Assembly (NCBI GenBank): GCA_963833575.1
Contig: CAWHXY010000004.1
Location: 512,001 to 576,000, forward strand
Length of the DNA stretch: 64,000 nucleotides
From: Candidatus Bathyarchaeota archaeon
GTDB lineage: Archaea; Thermoproteota; Bathyarchaeia; Bathyarchaeales; Bathycorpusculaceae
Direction: 5' to 3'
Made by a program: the position numbers and the translations under genes
Shown: one piece after another, positions 4,194 to 14,342 of the stretch
Position numbering within the stretch: the stretch's first letter is position 1
Layout of the letters: every line of letters begins with the position of its first letter
The notes under the pieces: generated by a model
What the model was told of the DNA's origin: nothing
Seen by the model: only the letters and a program-made list of their open reading frames with translations
Databases searched by the model: none

Positions 4194-4420
4194 ATTAGCT
4201 ACTTCTACCTCTATTCTATCCTGATCGAGGTGCTGTTGTATTAGCCATACCCCGCTTTGAATAGCAAAGTTGATTATAAGTCAGTTATGTACCGCGAATA
4301 CTGATTCATCAAACTCTTAAATGACTCTTTAAGCGGAAACCATTGTTTTATTTTTTATGAAAGCTTTTAATGTTTGAATCAGAAATGGTAGATACATCAA
4401 TATTTAGAAGGTTCAAATGC

Positions 4421-4837
4421 ATGGTAAAAGTTGAAGCATACGAAGTGCCAGAAGGCCTTTACTTCTCCAAAGATTTTGAATGGATAAAAATTGAAAGCGA
4501 TAAAATTCGCATGGGTATCACCGATTATGCGCAGAAAGCTCTGCGAGAAATCGTTTATGCTGAATTACCCACTGTTGGAACAGAAGTGAAGCAAAATGAG
4601 CCTTATGGAACATTGGAGTCTGTCAAAGCAGTTTCAGACCTCGTGGCAGCCGTAAGCGGCACAATCGAAGAAGTCAACGATGAAGTCCAGTCTAAACCTG
4701 AGACTCTCAATGAAGATCCTTATGAAAAAGGCTGGTTAATTGTTGTTAAGCCTTCAAACTTGCAGAGCGAACTTGCAAACTTGATGGATTTTAACGCAGC
4801 TGTTGAGTGGCATAAAGCTCAAACTCAATCTAAATAA
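4421..4837 (+). CDS. gcvH: Glycine cleavage H-protein-like lipoyl carrier
   Basis: GITDYAQ and ESVKAVSD (lipoyl-Lys) motifs, LNEDPY..GW; ATG at 4421 preferred over 4370. Confidence 0.9.
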   Translation: MVKVEAYEVPEGLYFSKDFEWIKIESDKIRMGITDYAQKALREIVYAELPTVGTEVKQNEPYGTLESVKAVSDLVAAVSGTIEEVNDEVQSKPETLNEDPYEKGWLIVVKPSNLQSELANLMDFNAAVEWHKAQTQSK

Positions 4838-4853
4838 GTTGAAGGCAAATTGC

Positions 4854-6200
4854 ATGGTTAGACGCGTAATTGTTGTTGGAGCAAACGCTGCAGGTGTAGA
4901 GGCGGCTTCTGCAGCACGCAAAAAAGATCGGACAGCCGAAATCACATTGGTTACTCAGGAAAAGAATGCTGGGTACTCTCGTTGTGGTCTACCGTTTGTT
5001 ATTGGTGGCCAAATAGCGAAATTTACCGATTTAATTGTTTATCCGCCTGCATATTTTCAAATGCTGAAACTCAATTTACGCTCTGAAACAAAAGCCACTG
5101 CAATTAACACCAAAGAGAAAACCGTTAGCATAGTTACCAAAGACGGGGTGACGAAGACATTACCATATGACAGCTTAGTGATTGCTACAGGTGCTGACTC
5201 GTTTATGCCGCCGATCAAAGGTAAAGATAAACAGGGAATACTAAGCCTACGAGGAATGGAGGACGGGGAAAAAATCGATGCAGCGGTTAAAGCTGGTGCA
5301 AAATCTGCTGTTATTATGGGAGCAGGCTTAATTGGGCTCGAGGTGGGAGTTGGCCTAATTGAACGTGGATTAAAAGTTACTATAGTTGAAATGTTGCCCC
5401 AGATTCTGCCTCAGTTACTTGATGCTGATATGGCAAAACAAGTTCAAGAACATTTAGAGTCCAAAGGCATGCGTATTCTAACAAGCAAGGGTGTTGAAGA
5501 ATTTCTTGGCGAAGAAAAAGTTACTGCTGTAATGGCTGGCGGCGAAAAGATTGAAGCAGACCTATTCATCAGCGCGTTCGGCGTTCGAGCAAACACAAAG
5601 CTGGCTGCTGACGCTGGAATTCCTCTGGGTGAGACTCGAGCAATCAAAACCAATGGACGTATGGAAACAGATGTTAAAGATGTGTATGCAGTTGGCGACT
5701 GCGCTGAAGCGCCAAGCATCATTACCCATCGCCCCATGTGCGCTCAACTAGGAACCATAGCTGTTCGTCAAGGCAAAGTTGCTGGAGCAAACGCGGGAGG
5801 CGACTATTCACAATTCTCAGGAATTTTAGCTTCAGCTGTCACAATGCTTTTTGAGATTCAAGCAGGAAACACAGGATTGACCGAAACTGCAGCAGCACGC
5901 AATCGGATTGAAGTTATTACTGGAACGATTAGCAGCAAAACCAAAGCAGACTATTTCCCAGGAGCTAAACCAATAAAAATCAAACTGGTCGTCGAAAAAG
6001 AATCCCAGCGCATCATAGGCGGGCAAGTCATAGGCGGAGAAGAAGTCACCCAACGCATAAACTGCCTCAGCTTCGCCATCCAAAAAGGCATGACAGTAAG
6101 AGAACTTGCAAAAGCCGACACAGCTTACGCACCTCCACTATGCGAAACATGGGAACCCATGGTTCTAGCAGCAGAAATGGTCCTAATGAAACTGCGGTAA
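4854..6200 (+). CDS. FAD-dependent NAD(P)H oxidase / CoA-disulfide reductase family flavoprotein
   Basis: GANAAG FAD motif, YSRCGLP redox Cys, GAGLIGLE NAD motif, C-terminal AYAPP; ATG at 4854 (MVRRVIVVG). Confidence 0.85.
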   Translation: MVRRVIVVGANAAGVEAASAARKKDRTAEITLVTQEKNAGYSRCGLPFVIGGQIAKFTDLIVYPPAYFQMLKLNLRSETKATAINTKEKTVSIVTKDGVTKTLPYDSLVIATGADSFMPPIKGKDKQGILSLRGMEDGEKIDAAVKAGAKSAVIMGAGLIGLEVGVGLIERGLKVTIVEMLPQILPQLLDADMAKQVQEHLESKGMRILTSKGVEEFLGEEKVTAVMAGGEKIEADLFISAFGVRANTKLAADAGIPLGETRAIKTNGRMETDVKDVYAVGDCAEAPSIITHRPMCAQLGTIAVRQGKVAGANAGGDYSQFSGILASAVTMLFEIQAGNTGLTETAAARNRIEVITGTISSKTKADYFPGAKPIKIKLVVEKESQRIIGGQVIGGEEVTQRINCLSFAIQKGMTVRELAKADTAYAPPLCETWEPMVLAAEMVLMKLR

Positions 6201-6233
6201 CCACAATTTCTTTTTTCTTTTTCAAGTTATTGG

Positions 6234-6671
6234 TTAAGATTGTTGTTGTCTTATCTCGTAGGATGTCGTGATTTCTGCTGTTTTCTTAAGCATCGCCCCG
6301 ACCGAACAATATTTGTCGTATGATAGTTGGATTGCTTTCTCAACAGCATCTTTGCTTACGTCTTTTCCTTCGATGATGTATTTGATGTGGATTTTGGTGA
6401 AAACCGTTGGGGGCTCATCATTCATTTCAGCTTCAGCCTCAACGGAGTAATTTGAGATATTTTGTCTTTTCTTTTTCAGGATTGTAACGACATCAAAACT
6501 AGTGCATCCCGCTAGACTCGCCAAAACTGTTTCCATAGGTGTTAACGCTGTTTCTTCTCCGCCATACTTTGCAGAAGCGTCAAAATTCACCGAAAGCCCT
6601 TTCTCGTTTTTAGCTTCGAAACGAAAATTCTTTTTCCAATTCAAAACTATTTTCCTTTTGTTCTCAGACAT
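6234..6671 (-). CDS. OsmC/Ohr family protein (YhfA-like)
   Basis: TPMETVLASLAGC...KYCSV two-Cys signature. Confidence 0.85.
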   Translation of the reverse strand: MSENKRKIVLNWKKNFRFEAKNEKGLSVNFDASAKYGGEETALTPMETVLASLAGCTSFDVVTILKKKRQNISNYSVEAEAEMNDEPPTVFTKIHIKYIIEGKDVSKDAVEKAIQLSYDKYCSVGAMLKKTAEITTSYEIRQQQS

Positions 6672-6818
6672 AATCACTACTTTGAAATTGACTCTAAAAA
6701 GTCTTTGTTAAATAATCTACCTTGATAGATTACCAGAAAAATATGCCTTTTACTATTGATTTCTTTTCTACCCTAAACTCTTATATTGCTCACCGCGAAA
6801 TCAAGAATTGGTGTCTTT

Positions 6819-7034
6819 TTGACTTGTTGGAAATGGTTTAATAGTGTTTTAAAAGAAGCGGATGTACAATTAACAGCCCACAATCAAGAAAAGATCGACG
6901 AAATTATTCACAAATACATAGGCGAACAATCTGTTTTAGGACGATGCTCAGCGGATTGGAAGAAGGCCAGCAAAGAAATCAAAGCAAATCCAGAAATGAA
7001 AAACGAGCTCATCTCAAAGCTGAAAGCAACATAG
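6819..7034 (+). CDS. Small hypothetical protein
   Basis: Compact helical ORF; likely TTG start at 6819 after ggtg; T-rich tract downstream. Confidence 0.55.
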   Translation: MTCWKWFNSVLKEADVQLTAHNQEKIDEIIHKYIGEQSVLGRCSADWKKASKEIKANPEMKNELISKLKAT

Positions 7035-7156
7035 TGAGCCCTTAGTGCTAACAAATAACTTTTTTCTTTTCAGTTAAGCATTAGTCTGGAACGGACCTAA
7101 AAGATGTCAAAAGATCAGGTGAACTTTTTAGAGAAAGAAAAACAACTGAAGAAAAA

Positions 7157-7735
7157 TTACTTCTTCGAAACGGGTTTATCGATTAACGTTTTTCCAATGT
7201 TCCAAGCTTGGGCAAACTTGCTTCCGAGTTTCCAATAGCTTCTATCATTCATTACGAACAGGATAGGTTGCACTTTTTCAAAATCAACTACACCATCCGT
7301 TAAAATGGTTTCATCACAATAAGTTGCCTCTATTTGGCCAACGAAAACTTCGTGACTTGGAAAATCAACCGTTTTAATCAATTTGCATTCCATGTTAATT
7401 GAGCATTGATCAATCATTGGCGCGGTTTTCAGTTTTCCATAGAAGATTTTGAAAAGGTCTGACTTATCTTGTGTTTTACCGGAAACTAATCCGCAATAAT
7501 CGGTTTCTTTAACCATTTTAACTGAAGGAATGTTAACGCTAAAGGTACCGTTTGCTCTTATTCCAGCATTTGTATGATGCGCTTTCCCCATGCCCAGAGA
7601 AATTGAACCTAAATCCATAATTCCCACATGAGCAATTGTTATGTAATTCGGTTTATCGTTAACCAAAGCACCAATCAAAGTTGTTGGCAATGGATAAAGA
7701 CAGTTTTTGGCTCCAATTTCAACCTTCATATTCAT
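7157..7735 (-). CDS. Flavin reductase-like protein (flavoredoxin family)
   Basis: LYPLP, FSVNIP, DYCGLVSG, APMI..C..NMECK, HEVFVG motifs. Confidence 0.85.
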   Translation of the reverse strand: MNMKVEIGAKNCLYPLPTTLIGALVNDKPNYITIAHVGIMDLGSISLGMGKAHHTNAGIRANGTFSVNIPSVKMVKETDYCGLVSGKTQDKSDLFKIFYGKLKTAPMIDQCSINMECKLIKTVDFPSHEVFVGQIEATYCDETILTDGVVDFEKVQPILFVMNDRSYWKLGSKFAQAWNIGKTLIDKPVSKK

Positions 7736-7779
7736 TATTCCTAGTTGTTTAGTCTTTTAGGAAGTATAAAATGAAAAAC

Positions 7780-7971
7780 TTAGGTTTTTTGTTTCTTGTT
7801 TTGTTTTGCAGGATCTTTTTTTGGTTCTTCTTGAGCACTTTTGCCAGCGCATTTTATACAGCAAGCGGTGTATTTTTTGCCGTCGATTATGGTTGTAGCT
7901 GTTGACAGTTGGCACAATTCGGGTGTGCTTTCTGAGCTGCAGAATTCGCATTTTGTTGTCTTTGTCTTCAT
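7780..7971 (-). CDS. Cys-rich metal-binding microprotein (TRASH/YHS-like)
   Basis: CEFC...C...IDGKKYTACCIKC; start overlaps the iscU stop (ATGA). Confidence 0.65.
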   Translation of the reverse strand: MKTKTTKCEFCSSESTPELCQLSTATTIIDGKKYTACCIKCAGKSAQEEPKKDPAKQNKKQKT

Positions 7972-8357
7972 TTTTTCACCTCGTGGGTTGCTTCTTGTTT
8001 TTTGTAGAAATCCTTTATTGCTTCATGTAGTGCATCTGCAGCTAAGTTTGAACAGTGCATTTTGACCGGTGGTAATCCTCCTAATGACGTTGCAACGTCG
8101 GCCCGCGTTATTTTTAGGGCTTCTTCAAGCGTTTTTCCTTTAGCCATTTCTGTCGTCATGCTGCTAGTGGCTATTGCAGCTCCGCAACCAAAAGTTTTGA
8201 ATTTGATATCGGTTATTTTGTTATCTTTAACTTTGATGTACATTGTCATTAAGTCGCCGCAGACAGGATTCCCTACGGTGCCTACACCGTCTGCATCAGG
8301 GATCTCTCCTGTGTTTTTGGGGTTTTTAAAATGTTCCATAACTTTTTCCGAGTACAT
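7968..8357 (-). CDS. iscU: Fe-S cluster scaffold IscU/NifU-N
   Basis: YSEKVMEHF.NP, GNPVCGD, FGCGAAIA, PPVKMHCS. Confidence 0.95.
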   Translation of the reverse strand: MYSEKVMEHFKNPKNTGEIPDADGVGTVGNPVCGDLMTMYIKVKDNKITDIKFKTFGCGAAIATSSMTTEMAKGKTLEEALKITRADVATSLGGLPPVKMHCSNLAADALHEAIKDFYKKQEATHEVKK

Positions 8358-9541
8358 TATAATTTCAACTCCTTAGGTGTCAATGGTGACATTGCCCTTA
8401 ATCGATTAATTATACTAGGCATCAAGCCTATAACATATTCGACATCTTCCAAAGTGTTTTCCCTGCCCAAAGAAAACATTATTGATCCATGAGCTTCTTC
8501 GTGTTTTAGTCCAGTTGCAAGTAATACATGTGAGGGTTCTAAGGTCTTTGATGCGCATGCAGAGCCAGAGGACACTGAGACCCCGTTCATTTCTAAGCTA
8601 AGCAGCATGGATTCCCCTTCTATGAAGCTGTATCTGACTGATACATTGTCGGGAACTCGATTAGTTGGGTGACCGTTTAGGAATGTGTAGGGAAGTGGTT
8701 TGAGTAAACCTTCTATTAGTCTATCTCTTAGTTTAGTCAAATGTTCGATGTTGGTTTGCATTTCTTTTTTAGCTATTTCTGCTGCTTTCCCAAATGCTAC
8801 AATGCTAGGTATGTTTTCGGTTCCAGATCGGAGACCTTTTTCTTGTCCTCCACCATGAAGCAGAGGCTCTATGCGTACTCCATCTTTCATATAGAGTGCT
8901 CCAACGCCTTTGGGGCCATACATGTCATTTGAGGAAATAGTGAGAAGATCAATACCTAAGGCTTGTACGTCAATTGGGATTTGACCAGCCGCGACTGTTG
9001 CGTCCACGTGTAAGATAGCGTTTGTGGTGTGTACTATTTTGCTTATCTCTTGAATGGGTTCAATTGTGCCTATCTCTCCATTAACGAATACAATGGATAC
9101 AAGGGTTGTTTTGTCGTTTAATTCCCTTTTTAGGCTGGCTAAGTCTAAAGTGCCAAATTTATCCACGGGAAGAAAGACCGCTTCAAAGCCTTTTGTTGTC
9201 AAAAATTTTATTGGGTTAACTACAGACATGTGTTCTACGCTTGAGGTTATGATTTTTGTTCCCTTGTCTTTGCTGCGGTTGGCAACTCCTTTAATTGCCA
9301 AGTTGTTGCTTTCGGTTGCGCCAGATGTAAAAATTATTGATTCAGCTTTTTCAGCATTAATCAAATTTGCAACTTTAACTCTTGCTTCATCAAGTGCACG
9401 CTTTGCTTCTTGACCAGAAACATGTAGCGATGAGGGGTTGCCGTATGATGTTTTCATAAAAGGCAGCATTGCTTCTATTGCTCGGGGGTCAACGGGTTTT
9501 CCCGATGCGTAATCCATATTTACTTTTTTTGTTTTTGACAT
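8357..9541 (-). CDS. iscS: IscS/NifS-family protein, variant with PLP Lys replaced by Asp
   Basis: GNPSS, FTSGATES, SSGSAC(329); SSND(206)MYGPKG in place of SxHKxYGPKG. Confidence 0.9.
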   Translation of the reverse strand: MSKTKKVNMDYASGKPVDPRAIEAMLPFMKTSYGNPSSLHVSGQEAKRALDEARVKVANLINAEKAESIIFTSGATESNNLAIKGVANRSKDKGTKIITSSVEHMSVVNPIKFLTTKGFEAVFLPVDKFGTLDLASLKRELNDKTTLVSIVFVNGEIGTIEPIQEISKIVHTTNAILHVDATVAAGQIPIDVQALGIDLLTISSNDMYGPKGVGALYMKDGVRIEPLLHGGGQEKGLRSGTENIPSIVAFGKAAEIAKKEMQTNIEHLTKLRDRLIEGLLKPLPYTFLNGHPTNRVPDNVSVRYSFIEGESMLLSLEMNGVSVSSGSACASKTLEPSHVLLATGLKHEEAHGSIMFSLGRENTLEDVEYVIGLMPSIINRLRAMSPLTPKELKL

Positions 9542-9651
9542 TTCTCTTCACTTTAATAATAAAATTATTTTGTTCTCAAAACTTGGATGGAAAGAATTAA
9601 TGGTAAACTGTTTCCTAAGGATCCTTCTTTGGTTTTCTCACTGTTAAACTT

Positions 9652-9888
9652 TTACTTTATTTTCTTGATAACTATCCGAGTTGCATTGCCCTCTTTGTTG
9701 CTGCTAACTATTTCCTGACCTAAATTCTTCACGAGGCTGCGTATATCTGAATCAGCAGCGGGATCATCAGCAACAACTTCTAATGTCTCACCTATCGCTA
9801 ACTCGTCCAAAGCTAATCTCGTCTGGAATACTGGTTCGGGACAATATAATCCCAAACAATCAAGTTTTTTGTCTATTTTGGCAGTCAT
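9652..9888 (-). CDS. tusA: Sulfur carrier TusA family
   Basis: LDCLGLYCPEP motif, VADDP; ATG at 9888 (alternative 9906). Confidence 0.9.
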   Translation of the reverse strand: MTAKIDKKLDCLGLYCPEPVFQTRLALDELAIGETLEVVADDPAADSDIRSLVKNLGQEIVSSNKEGNATRIVIKKIK

Positions 9889-9930
9889 TAAATCCACTCT
9901 AAACATATCTACGAGCTGCTTTGTTTCTTT

Positions 9931-10293
9931 CTAAAACCACATGGTAGCATTTGCGCTTAGTACTAAGTCGTTTAATGTCGCGGCGCCTACAATTTTCACT
10001 CCCGGAATTAAGGTTACGGTATCCCATCCAAGCATCCGTTTAGACGCTTCACATACGTTGATTTCAATTCCCATTTGAAGAGTTTCTTGAATCATTTCTG
10101 CAACAGTAGGGAAAGATCCTAGCTTTATTTTCTCAGCTGCACCCGGAAGCAATATTCTGAGTCCTTGACCTAGAAAATACACTTTTGGGTTTAAGTCCAT
10201 AGCTTTGGCAGTTTGAGCTAAAACCAAAGGAGAGTATTGTCTTTCAGGATTGTCACTGGTTTGAACATATAAAATAAATTTTTCATCTTTCAC
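9931..10293 (-). CDS. DsrE/DsrF family sulfur relay protein
   Basis: VYFLGQG, INVCEAS conserved Cys, IVGAATL; GTG start. Confidence 0.8.
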   Translation of the reverse strand: MKDEKFILYVQTSDNPERQYSPLVLAQTAKAMDLNPKVYFLGQGLRILLPGAAEKIKLGSFPTVAEMIQETLQMGIEINVCEASKRMLGWDTVTLIPGVKIVGAATLNDLVLSANATMWF

Positions 10294-10368
10294 AAAAATC
10301 GCTCTCTATTTTTCTGCTACAGTATTCATAATGCGTGCTTTGCTTTAAACATAATTATTTTAAGTGAT

Positions 10369-11097
10369 TCATTTGGGATGACCAACTACGGTAAGGTAGA
10401 TTACGCTTTCTTCTGCTCCGTCTAAGCCTAAGGTTGAGTTAATTTCGTCGTCAAAGAAAGCTCCGATTTGGCAGGACCCACAGCTGATACTTACTGTTGC
10501 TAACGCCAGATTCTGGGCAATGTGCCCAGCATCCAAGTAAACATATCTGTATGCTCTTTGTGAGTATTTCCATTTTGACCTGTTAAATATTGCTGTCCAG
10601 ATGAAAACCACAGGTGCAATTGCACATATCGTTTGGTCTAAGGCTGCGTGAGCTATGACGTCACCAAAATTTCCAGTCTTAACTTCTTCAAGCGAATGAT
10701 CTTTTATGTTGTAATGGTAAATGCCATTATCCAATTCTTCGACGTTATTTACAGCAACGTATGTCTCGATGGGGTATAACGCGCCGGCTGAAGGAGCATT
10801 ACGAAACTCGTAGCCATGTTCTATTCTTTGGATACCTGTAGACGCCCAAAGCAGAAAAGACAAATCTAATTTGCTCAATGGTTGAGGTGAGAAGGCGCGA
10901 GTACTTCTGCGTTTTTTTAGAGTATCGGTGAATGTAGTAGTTGTCTCTTTTAACTCGCTTGGCAACTTTACTGTTTTGCAGTGTGGATAGCTCTTGTAAG
11001 TTTCTGGTTTCTTCGACCAATCCAAGTTGCCACCAAAACCTTGGTTTCGAATGTATTTAGTCTCTTTCTGGAAATCGTCTCCAACGGGTGCTCCCAT
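10369..11097 (-). CDS. SagB/ThcOx-type nitroreductase family protein
   Basis: RRSTRAF, APSAGALYP, DAGHIAQN, IGAFFDD. Confidence 0.85.
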   Translation of the reverse strand: MGAPVGDDFQKETKYIRNQGFGGNLDWSKKPETYKSYPHCKTVKLPSELKETTTTFTDTLKKRRSTRAFSPQPLSKLDLSFLLWASTGIQRIEHGYEFRNAPSAGALYPIETYVAVNNVEELDNGIYHYNIKDHSLEEVKTGNFGDVIAHAALDQTICAIAPVVFIWTAIFNRSKWKYSQRAYRYVYLDAGHIAQNLALATVSISCGSCQIGAFFDDEINSTLGLDGAEESVIYLTVVGHPK

Positions 11098-11346
11098 AAT
11101 TTAGCCTCTTTTTGAATTAATCCTATGCTGAGCTGGAACCAGTTTATTCAATACAAATGACGTCAAATAATTCGCCAATTATCTCTGTATGTAAAGTAAT
11201 ATTTAATCGAATTGCTTTCAACGCATTTATTTGATTTTATCTTTGATCGAGCAGTGATCACGAAAGTAAAATACCAAATTTTTCGAGGTTAACACCTTGC
11301 CTTCCTAGTGGAAAGCTGTTATATTCTTTTCTGACACATTGAATTT

Positions 11347-11898
11347 ATGAACCCTATTGAAAAAAATAGCAAAGCCAATTTTATTGTCAGAGACCTCAAG
11401 CCAGAGGACTTTGAAGAAGTCATTGATAACTACTACAGTATTTATGACGAAGTAAAACAAAATCCTTGGGCTGTTGGAATCTTGCTTTTTGAGAAAAAGC
11501 CTTCGCTTAAGGATGAACGCAAATGGTTCAAAGAAGCGCTTGAAAAAACAAGAAAAGGCGATGGATTCGCGCTAGTCGCTGAAGTCAATGGCAAAGTAAT
11601 TGGAATGTGCGAAGTGAGGAACAAGACACCTCAACAAGAGCAGAAGCACATTGGCAATGTCGGAATATACACAAGAGAAGGATACAGGTCGATGGGAATT
11701 GGAAGTGCACTTCTCAGCGAATTGATCAACAGAGCTAAAACAAAATACAAAAGCCTGATTTTGACAGTTTTTATTAGCAATCAACCTGCAAAAAATCTCT
11801 ATAAGAAATTTGGCTTTGTTGAATACGGCATTTTGCCCGAAGGGATATTAAGGAGTGGGAAGTATGCAGATGAAATTTACATGTATCTGAAGCTTTAG
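11347..11898 (+). CDS. GNAT family N-acetyltransferase
   Basis: YRSMGIGSALL acetyl-CoA motif, N..AKNLYKKFGF. Confidence 0.85.
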   Translation: MNPIEKNSKANFIVRDLKPEDFEEVIDNYYSIYDEVKQNPWAVGILLFEKKPSLKDERKWFKEALEKTRKGDGFALVAEVNGKVIGMCEVRNKTPQQEQKHIGNVGIYTREGYRSMGIGSALLSELINRAKTKYKSLILTVFISNQPAKNLYKKFGFVEYGILPEGILRSGKYADEIYMYLKL

Positions 11899-11942
11899 AA
11901 TCGAATATAACAGCTCGAGCAAAAGTGGAGTGTATACTGGTT

Positions 11943-13799
11943 TTAAATAAGGTAGGCTTCCGTGATGTATCTTCGCACTACCCATTGTGTCTGGAAGTAG
12001 TAGGCTATTTTTGCGATTGAGTTCTTCATTAGAGTTATCCAAGCGTCTTTTTGACTGTAAAAAGCTGGAGCGATCAGGTATTCGAGTTTGCTATATAGGT
12101 CTTGGATTTCTGCTTCTCTTCTTTGGCTTTCTGTTAATAGTGTTGTCGGATGAGGACCTATTGCCCAACCGGTAACACCTTCGATGCAACCTTCCATCCA
12201 CCAACCATCCAGTACGCTGAAGTTAATGACGCCATTGTGGGCGGCTTTCATTCCGCTCGTTCCTGAGGCCTCCAGAGGCGGCAAAGGTGTATTGAGCCAG
12301 ACGTCGACGCCTGAGGTGAGTTTGGCTGCGGTATCCATGTTGTAGTTTTCTATATAAACGACGCTGATTTGATCTTTCAGTTTATTTGCGTAATCATGGA
12401 TTTGTTTTATGAGGGATTTGCCGTCTGTGTCTCGTGGGTGTGCTTTCCCAGCAAATATCATTTGGATTTTTGCTTTTCGATTAATGTCCGTTAACCTGTG
12501 AAGGTCAGAGAAGATTAGGGTTGCACGTTTGTAACCTGTGGCTCGTCTAGCAAAACCTATTGTCAAAGCCTGTGGGTCCAATGTTACTCCGCTTGCTTTT
12601 TCCACGAAAGTTAGTAAGTCTGTTTTTGCTTTAGTGTGAGCGTCCCAAACTTCTCTGTTGGGAATTTCACTAGCTTTTGCTAAAAGTATGGGTTCGTTTG
12701 TCCAACCTGGGATGTATTTGTCGAAAAGTTGCCTGAAATGCAGGCTTGTCCAAGTAAAGGAATGCACCCCGTTCGTGACGGCTCGGATGTAGCGACCTGG
12801 AAAAAGTTTTCGGGAATAATCCACATGTGCCAGAGAAACGCCATTTATGTACTTGCTTAAGTTTAGTGCTAGATAGGCCATGTTTAGGTTTTCTGTTCCC
12901 GCGTATAGTTTCATGTCAGCCAGCGGGTAAATGTTGTCTAGAACTTGTTGGACAAGGTCATATGGAAACTGATCAAACGCAGCTTCTACCGGGCTGTGTG
13001 TAGTGAAAACGCAGAGGTTTTTGACTTTCTCTGCGTCCATGCCGTTTTCTTTCAGCAGTTCAAGTGTTAAAAGACTTGAGTGTCCTTCATTCATGTGATA
13101 CTTTCTGATTTTGAAGGGAAGGCTTTTCAGGATTTTAGTGCCGCCTATGCCCAGAACAATTTCTTGTTTCAGTCTGTAGGTTTTGTCTCCACCGTACAAG
13201 AAATCTGTGATTCTTCTGTCTTCGGGAGTGTTACCTTCCACATCTGTGTCTAGAAAGAGTATTGGCACCATTCCGCCCGTGATGCTCTGGTACTCATAGA
13301 GCCAAGCTTGCACTTTAACTAAGCGTCCTTCGATGGTTACTGTGACTGTGCTGGGCATACGAGTCAACGTTTTAGCTGGATCCCATTCTTCAGTTAACTC
13401 AATTTGCTCGCCTTGCTCAGTTATTTTTTGCATGAAGTAGCCTTTTCTACTTACAAGTGTGATGGCAACCATTTGGAGCCGAAGATCTGCACTGGATTTA
13501 ACAATGTCACCAGCCAAGACACCTAAGCCACCACTATAAGTGGGCATTTTGCTGATTACACCTATTTCCATCGAAAAGTAGGCGATTCTGGGGTCTTCAT
13601 GGAAGTGACCCCGGCAGTTCTCGCTGCAAAAACAGTATTTTTTACCACCGAAACTATCAGATGTTACTTCGATGCTTGTTGCCAGGTTCTCTGGATCGAT
13701 TTGGATTCCGCAAACTGGACATCTTAAAGAGACTGGCAAACTGGTACCACTTAGAGAAGAGCCTTCTCCGCCAACTGATATATGTGTATTGCTGTACAT
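11943..13799 (-). CDS. glgP: Alpha-glucan (glycogen/maltodextrin) phosphorylase with N-terminal YHS/TRASH domain
   Basis: YFSMEIG, YSGGLGVLAGD, HMNEGH, EASGTSGMK (PLP Lys); N-terminal CPVCG...YCFCSENC. Confidence 0.9.
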   Translation of the reverse strand: MYSNTHISVGGEGSSLSGTSLPVSLRCPVCGIQIDPENLATSIEVTSDSFGGKKYCFCSENCRGHFHEDPRIAYFSMEIGVISKMPTYSGGLGVLAGDIVKSSADLRLQMVAITLVSRKGYFMQKITEQGEQIELTEEWDPAKTLTRMPSTVTVTIEGRLVKVQAWLYEYQSITGGMVPILFLDTDVEGNTPEDRRITDFLYGGDKTYRLKQEIVLGIGGTKILKSLPFKIRKYHMNEGHSSLLTLELLKENGMDAEKVKNLCVFTTHSPVEAAFDQFPYDLVQQVLDNIYPLADMKLYAGTENLNMAYLALNLSKYINGVSLAHVDYSRKLFPGRYIRAVTNGVHSFTWTSLHFRQLFDKYIPGWTNEPILLAKASEIPNREVWDAHTKAKTDLLTFVEKASGVTLDPQALTIGFARRATGYKRATLIFSDLHRLTDINRKAKIQMIFAGKAHPRDTDGKSLIKQIHDYANKLKDQISVVYIENYNMDTAAKLTSGVDVWLNTPLPPLEASGTSGMKAAHNGVINFSVLDGWWMEGCIEGVTGWAIGPHPTTLLTESQRREAEIQDLYSKLEYLIAPAFYSQKDAWITLMKNSIAKIAYYFQTQWVVRRYITEAYLI

Positions 13800-13883
13800 G
13801 GGCGAACACTCAAAGCCCCGCCTTAAACTAGAATTGTCCCAGATACTTCAAATCAATATTTTTGACAGTAAGTAGGCAAATGT

Positions 13884-14342
13884 TTATCCTATTTTGGATG
13901 TTCCTGGTTGAGTAAATGGTTCAGTCATACCGACGAGAAGTTTGCCGAAAGTGTTAATGTGAGTTTCTTCTTCAGCCAAAATTTCCTCCAACATACGCCT
14001 GGTTGTGTAATCGCCTTCCATTGCCGCAATCTGAATTGCCTGCTTGTAGAGGCTAATAGCTCTTTCTTCATCCTGCTCGTCTTGCTCAAGCATTTCTATA
14101 AGGCTACCCATCACGAAAATAGGATCAGGCTTTGTTGAAGGTACACCGTTGAGATAATCAAGGCGTTCCGCAAGACGTTCAGCATGCTTCATTTCAGCTA
14201 TAGCCGTCTTACGGAAAATATCTTCCACCGTAACACCATCCATTCCTGTGACCTGCACATGTTGCCACATATACTGAATGCTAACTTGAAGTTCACGCGC
14301 AATGGCATTGTTTAAGAATTCTAAAAGTTTTTGAGAAGCCAA
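13884..14342 (-). CDS. Ferritin-like di-iron protein (bacterioferritin-related)
   Basis: E..SIQY, EMKHAE, EERAI..Y, EETH ferroxidase ligands; TTG start. Confidence 0.85.
   Translation of the reverse strand: MASQKLLEFLNNAIARELQVSIQYMWQHVQVTGMDGVTVEDIFRKTAIAEMKHAERLAERLDYLNGVPSTKPDPIFVMGSLIEMLEQDEQDEERAISLYKQAIQIAAMEGDYTTRRMLEEILAEEETHINTFGKLLVGMTEPFTQPGTSKIG

Follow-up and report, generated by a model that had tools for sequence, protein, structure and literature searches.

A lysine-less IscS linked to TusA, DsrE and IscU in a Bathyarchaeota archaeon: a candidate sulfane-sulfur-fed route to iron-sulfur clusters

The window analyzed here is the whole 64,000-nucleotide stretch at positions 512,001 to 576,000 of contig CAWHXY010000004.1 from a Candidatus Bathyarchaeota archaeon (GCA_963833575.1). 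Its minus strand carries, all in the same orientation, dsrE, tusA, iscS, iscU and an open reading frame (ORF) for a Cys-rich protein of 63 residues, and the encoded IscS has an aspartate at the position of the lysine that forms the Schiff base with pyridoxal 5'-phosphate (PLP). The link of tusA to lysine-less iscS genes spans Archaea and Bacteria and survives repeated changes of gene order. A functional coupling of TusA and DsrE with the catalytically dead IscS and its IscU is well supported and in our judgement highly probable. We put the chances at about even that the five genes constitute an accessory operon (dsrE-tusA-iscS-iscU-Cys-rich ORF) for IscU-based iron-sulfur (Fe-S) assembly, in which the lysine-less IscS would be non-enzymatic and sulfur would be fed in via TusA and DsrE.

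Organization of the gene cluster

The features of the cluster are as follows.

9931-10293, minus strand: dsrE, 120 residues, single-Cys DsrE-family sulfur carrier (PF02635, E 1.3e-13) with Cys81 in VCEAS
9652-9906, minus strand: tusA, 84 residues, TusA sulfur carrier (PF01206, E 1.2e-21) with Cys22 in CPEP
9542-9651, minus strand: tusA-iscS spacer, 110 nucleotides, A+T-rich
8357-9541, minus strand: iscS of the lysine-less (Asp206) type, 394 residues, Aminotran_5 family (PF00266)
8924-8926, minus strand: iscS codon 206, GAC (Asp), corresponding to the PLP Schiff-base lysine
8555-8557, minus strand: iscS codon 329, TGC, the loop cysteine
7968-8357, minus strand: iscU, 129 residues, U-type Fe-S scaffold (NifU_N, PF01592, E 7.6e-51)
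7780-7971, minus strand: small Cys-rich ORF with a basic tail, 63 residues, translationally coupled to iscU

Coordinates and junctions agree with the original prediction of a co-oriented five-gene cluster whose last three members overlap by 1-4 nucleotides: the iscS stop and the iscU start share one nucleotide (TAATG), the iscU stop and the start of the Cys-rich ORF share four (ATGA). The overlaps are confined to these three genes, with gaps of 24 nucleotides between dsrE and tusA and of 110 nucleotides between tusA and iscS; the latter spacer may contain an internal promoter or leader. All sequence motifs claimed at the outset were likewise found, namely SSNDMYGPKG (codon 205 is AAT, codon 206 is GAC at 8926-8924), HVDATV and SSGSAC329 in IscS, C22-PEP in TusA and VC81EAS in DsrE. 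A promoter and terminator scan gave no excess, its consensus patterns being bacterial and uninformative for an archaeon. The palindrome TTAAC-N3-GTTAA has 56 matches in the window at up to two mismatches, compared to 51.7 expected; it is thus not enriched, and no match before the operon stands out.

Loss of the substrate pocket in the lysine-less IscS

The window IscS matches PF00266 over residues 9-370 (E 4.1e-80) and accordingly has the class-V aminotransferase fold. Among the 59 desulfurase sequences of the PDB that match it at E ≤ 1e-20, the best is Archaeoglobus fulgidus IscS2 (4eb5/4eb7/4hvk, E 1.1e-140), in which the SSND motif is aligned. This bears out the earlier assignment to the A. 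fulgidus type with its Lys-to-Asp exchange, and the window protein is, judged by its sequence, an orthologue of inactive A. fulgidus IscS2. In a homologue search with the window IscS the best 120 matches are all at least 85% identical to it.

For a residue comparison 117 Asp-type and 187 Lys-type sequences were employed, with E. coli IscS (locus L259) providing the numbering. As the two groups were defined by the residue at position 206 itself, Asp is found there in 117/117 and Lys in 187/187 sequences, and with 117 aligned clade members alike the aspartate of the window is no chance change. The exchange is accompanied by others. His205, present in 87% of the Lys type, is replaced by Asn, Trp or Gly in the Asp type; Gln183 (83%) by Ala, Val or Pro; Asn155 (84%) mostly by Gly; and Arg354 (87%) by Leu or Met. 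The window protein follows the consensus of its clade (Leu/Met, Ala, Asn and Gly) with Met355, Val183, Asn205 and Gly155 at these sites. Arg354, Gln183, His205 and Asn155 are residues of the substrate and cofactor pocket of IscS. His104, Asp180, Ser203, Thr243, Ala327 and Cys328 are kept in the Asp type; the first four, which stack on or contact the cofactor, are conserved in 93-99% of the 117 sequences, and the loop cysteine (Cys329 in the window, Cys328 in E. coli) is invariant in 117/117. The pattern of this coordinated, clade-wide loss is that of a protein which would still hold the B6 ring but no longer bind or process cysteine. Since it is under purifying selection, the lysine-less IscS is not a decaying gene.

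The A. fulgidus protein offers an experimental precedent. It is described as an inactive paralogue without desulfurase activity that binds pyridoxamine 5'-phosphate (PMP), in one statement PMP or PLP, and that may only give a Cys ligand to the IscU cluster; its D199K variant (4r5f) still held PMP and not PLP (PMC8918507, section 10). The loop cysteine, the persulfide carrier of active IscS, serves as the fourth ligand of the [2Fe-2S] cluster in A. fulgidus IscS-IscU (PMC13066941, section 8; PMC8918507, section 10).

Retention of the cofactor contacts raises the question of a residual enzymology, by which the bound B6 cofactor (PMP in A. fulgidus) would carry out C-S chemistry on some non-cysteine substrate, the protein thereby loading Cys329 itself. 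The high conservation of His104, Asp180, Ser203 and Thr243 and the cofactor binding by the A. fulgidus protein would fit such an activity. Against it stand the lack of desulfurase activity in A. fulgidus and the persistence of PMP in the D199K variant as given in the same section. Moreover, Leu or Met stands in place of Arg354, the residue that binds the carboxylate, which takes away the anchor for an α-amino or α-keto acid substrate, and in the wider lysine-less group Ala, Ser, Pro, Gln, Gly or Thr occupy the lysine site, which argues against a specific catalytic Asp. We regard this explanation as very improbable. A particular variant of it, PMP-driven desulfuration of 3-mercaptopyruvate, was set aside on account of the lost Arg354.

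Linkage of tusA and dsrE to lysine-less iscS

The genomic surroundings of lysine-less iscS genes were inspected in three samples. The first (a) comprises 80 contig loci whose IscS is 61-92% identical to that of the window; one of its six seed patterns was NDMYGPKG, hence it is biased towards the Asp type. All 80 loci read N-D, and nearly all are labelled Bathyarchaeia. TusA adjoins in 74/80, DsrE in 54/80, IscU in 76/80 and the Cys-rich ORF in 71/80. Of the six loci without TusA, L015, L034 and L054 are truncated by the end of the contig, and in L086 the sequence upstream of iscS is only about 720 bases long.

Sample b derives from a search with the whole protein in 401 Thermoproteota genomes, 211 of which contain homologues. 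Examined were 90 loci, the top 30 by score and 60 hand-picked among the matches listed, and about 150 further matches were left out. Because the search used the whole protein, the seed-pattern bias does not extend to the 36 Asp-type loci of this sample (ND, WD or GD, the window included). IscU adjoins in 36/36 of them, TusA in 35/36, DsrE in 27/36 and the Cys-rich ORF in 18/36; the only locus without TusA, L114, begins at iscS. For the 54 Lys-type loci the corresponding counts are 26/54 for IscU, 9/54 for TusA and 6/54 for DsrE.

Sample c consists of 80 metagenome contigs retrieved with an alignment of nine representatives, eight lysine-less ones and the Lys-bearing relative P0124. Fourteen loci harbor a lysine-less gene (NQ, DM, DQ, QT, SQ, HN or ND). 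TusA adjoins in 7/14, mostly in the order iscS-iscU-dsrE-tusA, and most of the seven loci without TusA are cut short. Where the main gene is of the Lys type, TusA is found in 0/67. The NQ-type proteins carry the source names Chloroflexota or Dehalococcoidia; of 120 relatives of this type 104 read xxNQ by pattern, while 16 were unmatched. Over all samples the orders dsrE-tusA-iscS, tusA-dsrE-iscS, iscS-iscU-cys-dsrE and iscS-iscU-dsrE-tusA are seen.

The synteny of tusA and dsrE with Asp-type iscS is therefore conserved (35/36 and 74/80), where an absence of conserved linkage had been named beforehand as evidence against the relay; it is not exclusive, however, because a clade of the Lys type is linked to the carriers as well (see below). 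Lys-to-Asp IscS as such was already known, and it is the conserved coupling that names TusA and DsrE as specific candidate donors. Full-text literature, subscription papers being outside its scope, yielded no report of a genetic coupling between lysine-less IscS and TusA/DsrE. Candidate loaders of DsrE, namely rhodanese, SQR and YeeE, are absent from the 25 most frequent gene clusters around the 80 loci of sample a, in which the commonest non-core cluster occurs 13 times.

A separate observation concerns iscU beside Asp-type iscS in three Thermoproteota genomes (family code f21), where an intein of about 370 residues with a homing-endonuclease-like middle part sits precisely at the first of the cluster-ligand cysteines (GNPVC|...HN|CGD; L110:1947-3447, L114:1123-2620, L116:1-1497).

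TusA and its docking on IscS

The closest PDB entry to the window TusA is E. coli TusA (1dcj/3lvj, E 1.4e-11). The equivalents of E. coli Cys19, Glu21, Arg27, Asp45 and Asp51 are kept (with Cys22, Asp48 and Asp54 in the window numbering), and the TusA partners of lysine-less IscS all keep Cys19, Asp45 and Asp51 where their N-terminus is complete. With the interface residues seen in the crystal complex of IscS and TusA from E. coli as a reference (PMC2854127, section 7 and Table 3), Arg55 is kept in the lysine-less IscS and position 52 is acidic (Asp/Glu).

The central salt bridge of the E. coli complex is formed between IscS Glu49 and TusA Arg31 (PMC2854127, section 7). Pairs of the Asp clade have Gln, Arg or Lys at IscS position 49 and Asp at TusA position 31 in 77 cases, with four exceptions that combine Glu with Asp. 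NQ-type pairs have IscS Glu or Asp at 49 together with TusA Lys31 in 4/6. Such a swap of charges between positions 49 and 31 is suggestive of a conserved docking geometry, resting on very few independent changes.

DsrE and the direction of sulfur flow

The closest solved structure to the window DsrE is that of DsrE3A SSO1125 (3MC3, E 9.3e-9). Cys81 aligns with the first cysteine of the C-X7-C motif of 3MC3, the second being Leu in the window protein. By this nearest structure the window DsrE appears DsrE3-like. The Cys-X7-Cys motif is that of DsrE3A (PMC4175335, section 21), and DsrE3-type proteins donate to TusA but hardly accept from it in vitro (PMC11094781, section 12; PMC4175335, abstract). 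Of the relay analogy in the original prediction, the step from DsrE to TusA fits the likeness to DsrE3A, while the likening to the E. coli transfer from TusA to TusD fits less well. Because the lysine-less IscS should be unable to make a persulfide and DsrE is nearest to DsrE3A, flow towards IscS and IscU is favoured. This inward direction is plausible, and we put its chance at about even.

An alternative is an outward flow, with the lysine-less IscS and IscU as a hub from which sulfur on Cys329, derived from sulfide plus an oxidant or from a cluster, would pass to TusA and on to DsrE for thio-cofactor synthesis or tRNA thiolation. Its precedent is the E. coli route from IscS via TusA to the DsrE-like TusD (PMC2854127). 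The Lys-type clade introduced below has the same dsrE-tusA-iscS-iscU layout, and in it sulfur could conceivably flow forward from cysteine; furthermore, a second DsrE-TusA pair of the source genome adjoins an AIRS-family enzyme, so the carriers serve other acceptors. On the other side, the lysine-less IscS has no evident means of mobilizing sulfur (Lys206, Arg354, Gln183 and His205 are lost), DsrE is DsrE3-like rather than TusD-like and DsrE3 types give to TusA (PMC11094781, section 12), and the neighbourhood clusters of the 80 loci show no recurring downstream thiolation enzyme of the TusE, MnmA or NcsA type. Outward flow is therefore considered improbable.

The second pair just mentioned (G000:C7:418672-420420; L289:5673-7420) encodes a DsrE of 158 and a TusA of 74 residues. 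It is followed by an AIRS/AIRS_C gene (SelD/ThiL/HypE-like); upstream are genes for a LysR regulator and a Rieske protein, and downstream comes a SudA/NfnB-like pair. The DsrE-TusA carrier pair thus has the appearance of a module that works with different acceptors.

Two further neighbourhood observations touch on DsrE. On the plus strand of the window (4370-6200) the gene for a GcvH-like protein of the lipoyl-carrier type (PF01597, E 8e-38) overlaps the start of a gene for a CoADR/NADH-oxidase-like flavoprotein with a single cysteine (SRCGLPF). In 9/80 related loci a gene resembling class-I dihydrolipoamide dehydrogenase (GGTCxxxGC) is situated about 2.5 kb upstream of tusA on the opposite strand. 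Links of DsrE3A to dihydrolipoamide dehydrogenase and of DsrE3B to lipoate proteins are known, and these neighbours recall them.

IscU and the small Cys-rich protein

In IscU the three cluster cysteines (Cys33, Cys58 and Cys102) are invariant among 30 sequences, as are Asp35 and His101. The Cys-rich ORF shows the pattern C8-x2-C11, C20, C37-C38-x2-C41 followed by a Lys-rich tail, with C8, C11, C20, C37 and C38 invariant in 30 sequences and C41 present in at least 90%. Pfam gives no match for the window ORF even at E 10. Eight relatives were scanned and produced weak TRASH, YHS and zf-FCS matches, most of them below the cut-offs; above these are PF24273 in L029 (28.6 vs 27) and zf-FCS in L023 and L029 (23.7 and 22.8 vs 22.4). 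An Atlas search points to DUF3330/zf-FCS clusters. The AlphaFold model, a hairpin plus a helix, has a low mean predicted local distance difference test score of 59.6, and a complex prediction of IscS and IscU with the ORF as partner scored 0.00, the fold of the partner itself being uncertain.

NQ-type loci carry a different ORF of 60-70 residues with four CxxC pairs that overlaps the iscU stop by four nucleotides (L179:3195-3392, L182:6573-6767, L183:4995-5207, L206:4061-4243), followed in L206 by a rubredoxin gene (4321-4488). As these loci contain an analogous overlapping ORF, a small metal-binding protein coupled to IscU recurs in both lysine-less groups. Elsewhere in the window (11943-13799, minus strand) is a homologue of glycogen phosphorylase whose N-terminus bears a Cys motif of the YHS type (PF04945, E 1.4e-4, short of the cut-off), a metal-binding motif of the same broad class as the Cys-rich ORF.

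Genome context and habitat

The source genome (G000) contains eight PF00266 matches. A second Fe-S locus (C4:670203-673181), about 150 kb away, comprises a Lys-bearing IscS-like gene, an IscU of 180 residues with an acidic tail and a SufS-like gene. The SufS-like protein has the canonical Lys and Cys (FSGHKMLGPTG, RSGYHCA). The IscS-like protein reads SSFK and DASD, and in its nearest relatives (L151, L172) His104 is changed to Pro and Arg354 to Leu, so that it may itself be unconventional. With a canonical SufS-like enzyme and a Lys-bearing IscS-like/IscU pair encoded in the genome, the description of the pathway as cysteine-independent is not supported, and cysteine independence as a necessity is unlikely in this organism. 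Of five other Asp-type genomes in which a single IscS-like match occurs, three encode a SufS-like protein that has both Lys and Cys; none was seen in the remaining two of the five genomes checked, G093 and G125 (95-96% complete).

No SUFBD_core match (PF01458) is present in the source genome, which is 94.3% complete, while 14/14 control genomes match. The Fe-S scaffolds found would thus seem limited to the two IscU loci, and the operon is an accessory second system in the source genome. In a first draw of congeners ten carry only the Lys-type homologue; in a second draw 4/12 have Asp-type iscS-iscU, namely G408 (86% DNA identity) and G401, G410 and G411 (about 70%). The Asp-type operon hence occurs in 4/21 distinct congeners of both draws. 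In G403, G404, G410 and G411 a CoADR-like gene abuts a ferritin-like gene, the segment corresponding to window positions of about 6224-13884 being absent between them, and because the flanking genes abut in these four congeners that segment is taken as a variable insert holding the operon. It also contains genes for OsmC, a flavin reductase, a nitroreductase, a GNAT protein and GlgP, a content of redox-stress flavour. Near the 80 related loci Fe/Mn superoxide dismutase (13/80), an FTR-like protein with a rubredoxin-like domain (9/80), glutaredoxin (9/80) and NADPH-FMN reductase (8/80) are encoded, counts which are not independent as the loci are related.

Among sequencing runs the best holder of the DNA is a freshwater sediment metagenome (share 0.44); the other holders, with shares below 0.1, stem from peat, permafrost, wetland or rhizosphere. 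The source had been called a sulfidic-sediment archaeon, a label that finds no support in the habitats seen, which for both holders and relatives are freshwater sediment, peat, permafrost and wetland.

These surroundings bear on an alternative account, according to which the lysine-less IscS acts only as a scaffold that stabilizes the IscU cluster, free sulfide enters IscU directly, and TusA and DsrE, instead of donating sulfur, buffer or detoxify reactive sulfane sulfur or regulate the interaction of IscS with IscU. Free sulfide is the sole hypothesis offered for the sulfur source of A. fulgidus IscS-IscU (PMC8918507, section 10), archaeal minimal systems using sulfide are known (PMC13066941, section 11), and in E. 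coli the flux of sulfur is steered by competition between TusA and IscU for IscS (PMC11302665). The redox- and thiol-stress neighbours (OsmC, flavin reductase, nitroreductase, CoADR-like and ferritin-like) and the superoxide dismutase, glutaredoxin and FTR-like genes near 9-13 of 80 loci would suit a protective function. Buffering alone, however, can hardly explain a persistent tusA link that withstands rearrangement and holds for lysine-less iscS but not for most of the Lys type (35/36 vs 9/54; 7/14 vs 0/67). The strict retention of the loop cysteine and of the catalytic Asp residues of TusA suggests real Cys-to-Cys chemistry, and nothing in these data marks peat and wetland habitats as rich in sulfide. 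A pure scaffold is thus possible but rather unlikely.

Phylogeny and observations against a dedicated relay

On the tree the Asp type forms one clade (36 rows, Shimodaira-Hasegawa-like approximate likelihood ratio test support 99) and therefore represents one inherited event within Thermoproteota. More widely, the lysine is absent in 17 of the 150 best representatives at 50% identity, and free trees divide these 17 between a group that contains the window and an NQ-like group.

The reading that TusA and DsrE feed a non-enzymatic IscS has to be weighed against the following. In an approximately unbiased (AU) test a single lysine-less clade was not rejected; the constrained tree was better by 8.27 log-likelihood units (p-AU 0.587) on an alignment that kept the trait columns, which favours joining the lysine-less groups. 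A claim of independent loss of the lysine in two groups was consequently dropped, and the association of tusA with lysine-less IscS may rest on very few evolutionary events. Secondly, a separate Lys-type clade of seven rows (support 100; L157, L158, L161, L163, L164, L166, L168) has tusA and iscU adjoining in 7/7 and dsrE in 6/7, L166 being cut at its tusA. Because this clade possesses the carriers too, they are not a specific substitute for the lost lysine. An Asp-type match is missing from the seven genomes with this tusA-linked Lys-type cluster, whose best E values are about 1e-96 to 1e-100. With Leu at 354 and Asp at 183, the Lys-type clade may itself be unconventional.

Exceptions to the linkage exist as well: L039 and L043 of sample a have ample flanks and are genuinely without tusA, and L201, of the NQ type, has no tusA within 5 kb. 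At the docking interface IscS Trp45 is changed to Gln and TusA Phe58 to Asn. Persulfide exchange among such carriers forms a reversible network in vivo (PMC11094781, abstract), which would blur an inward direction, and the free sulfide proposed for A. fulgidus points to a different source altogether. Finally, the expression data come from relatives and not from the source strain. Contigs at least 85% alike, from four metatranscriptome libraries of four studies, cover 26-28 of 30 bins and bridge every gene junction (X18 record 9, 7700-8485, spans the Cys-rich ORF, iscU and iscS; X20 record 29, 9447-10200, spans iscS, tusA and dsrE), but these RNA libraries may contain DNA, and a contig is not a transcript. 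They lend weak support to expression of the operon as a unit.

Proposed mechanism and implications

In the mechanism we propose for the operon as a sulfane-sulfur-fed assembly system, the DsrE3-like protein would load TusA, and TusA with a persulfide on Cys22 would dock on the lysine-less IscS where E. coli TusA docks. IscS would act as a docking adaptor with a swinging arm, TusA passing its sulfane sulfur to Cys329. Cys329 would hand the sulfur to IscU and then join the forming [2Fe-2S] cluster as its fourth ligand, after the model of A. fulgidus IscS-IscU. Ultimately the sulfur might stem from sulfane sulfur of the environment or of metabolism (polysulfide, thiosulfate-derived sulfur or low-molecular-weight persulfides) or, equally possible, from cysteine via the SufS-like enzyme of the genome. 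The weakest part of the model, a guess, concerns the TRASH-like Cys-rich protein, which may supply a metal (iron) or the electrons for the reduction of S0 to sulfide.

A more general form of this proposal is that lysine-less IscS, IscU, TusA, a DsrE3-like carrier and a small, metal-binding Cys-rich protein make up a distinct Fe-S pathway in anaerobic Archaea (Bathyarchaeia and metagenome-assembled genomes labelled Hadarchaeota) and in Dehalococcoidia-like bacteria, fed by protein-bound sulfane sulfur instead of cysteine desulfuration or free sulfide, with IscS as the swinging-arm adaptor. We put this forward tentatively, at clearly less than an even chance. If true, a sulfane-sulfur-fed route would join the known Fe-S systems ISC, SUF, NIF, MIS and SMS, and an enzyme would have evolved into a non-catalytic sulfur adaptor. 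For the source organism the meaning is more modest, an accessory second system in a variable redox-stress islet of a genome without a SufB/D match. In any case the coupling to TusA and DsrE hints at where a known type of dead IscS gets its sulfur, and it makes the matter open to a straightforward test by transfer and reconstitution in vitro. Added by the present analysis are the Lys-type clade linked to tusA and dsrE, the AU result, the status of the operon as part of an accessory islet, the lack of a SufB/D match, the charge swap and the DsrE3A-like assignment.

Comparison with known systems

The closest known system is A. fulgidus IscS2-IscU (4EB5, 4EB7, 4HVK; D199K variant 4R5F), which shares the ISSND-YGPKG motif and the SSGSAC loop with the window IscS. 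An IscU is likewise encoded next to IscS in the window, and ligation of the cluster by Cys329 is assumed here by analogy only. A. fulgidus belongs to a different phylum, whereas the host of the window is a member of the Bathyarchaeia from a mesophilic peat or sediment setting. The consulted sections of the A. fulgidus papers are silent on tusA, dsrE and the Cys-rich ORF, the conserved partners of the lysine-less IscS.

With the E. coli IscS-TusA-TusBCD relay (3LVJ) the window shares its TusA, which is most alike to the E. coli protein and keeps its key residues, as well as Arg55 and the acidic position 52 of IscS. In E. coli the sulfur starts at an active IscS and flows outward; the window IscS, by contrast, is predicted to be unable to mobilize sulfur. 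Trp45 replaced by Gln, the charge-swapped Glu49/Arg31 pair and a DsrE3-like instead of a TusD-like partner set the window further apart.

As in the DsrE3A-TusA system of Metallosphaera cuprina and the DsrE3B/C-TusA systems of sulfur oxidizers, a DsrE-family gene stands beside tusA in the window. These systems pass sulfur or thiosulfonate preferentially to TusA (PMC4175335, abstract; PMC11094781, section 12). The second cysteine of the DsrE3A motif is missing in the window DsrE. Moreover, sHdr genes are not found beside the operon, and the presumed sink is an Fe-S scaffold and not dissimilatory sulfur oxidation.

The MIS system (MisS-MisU) has in common with the window a two-gene core of IscS-like and IscU-like proteins without chaperones, ferredoxin or an A-type carrier (PMC13066941, section 11). 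In this comparison, which is one of layout only, MisS is described as a cysteine desulfurase, whereas the window IscS has no lysine and is accompanied by three extra conserved genes.

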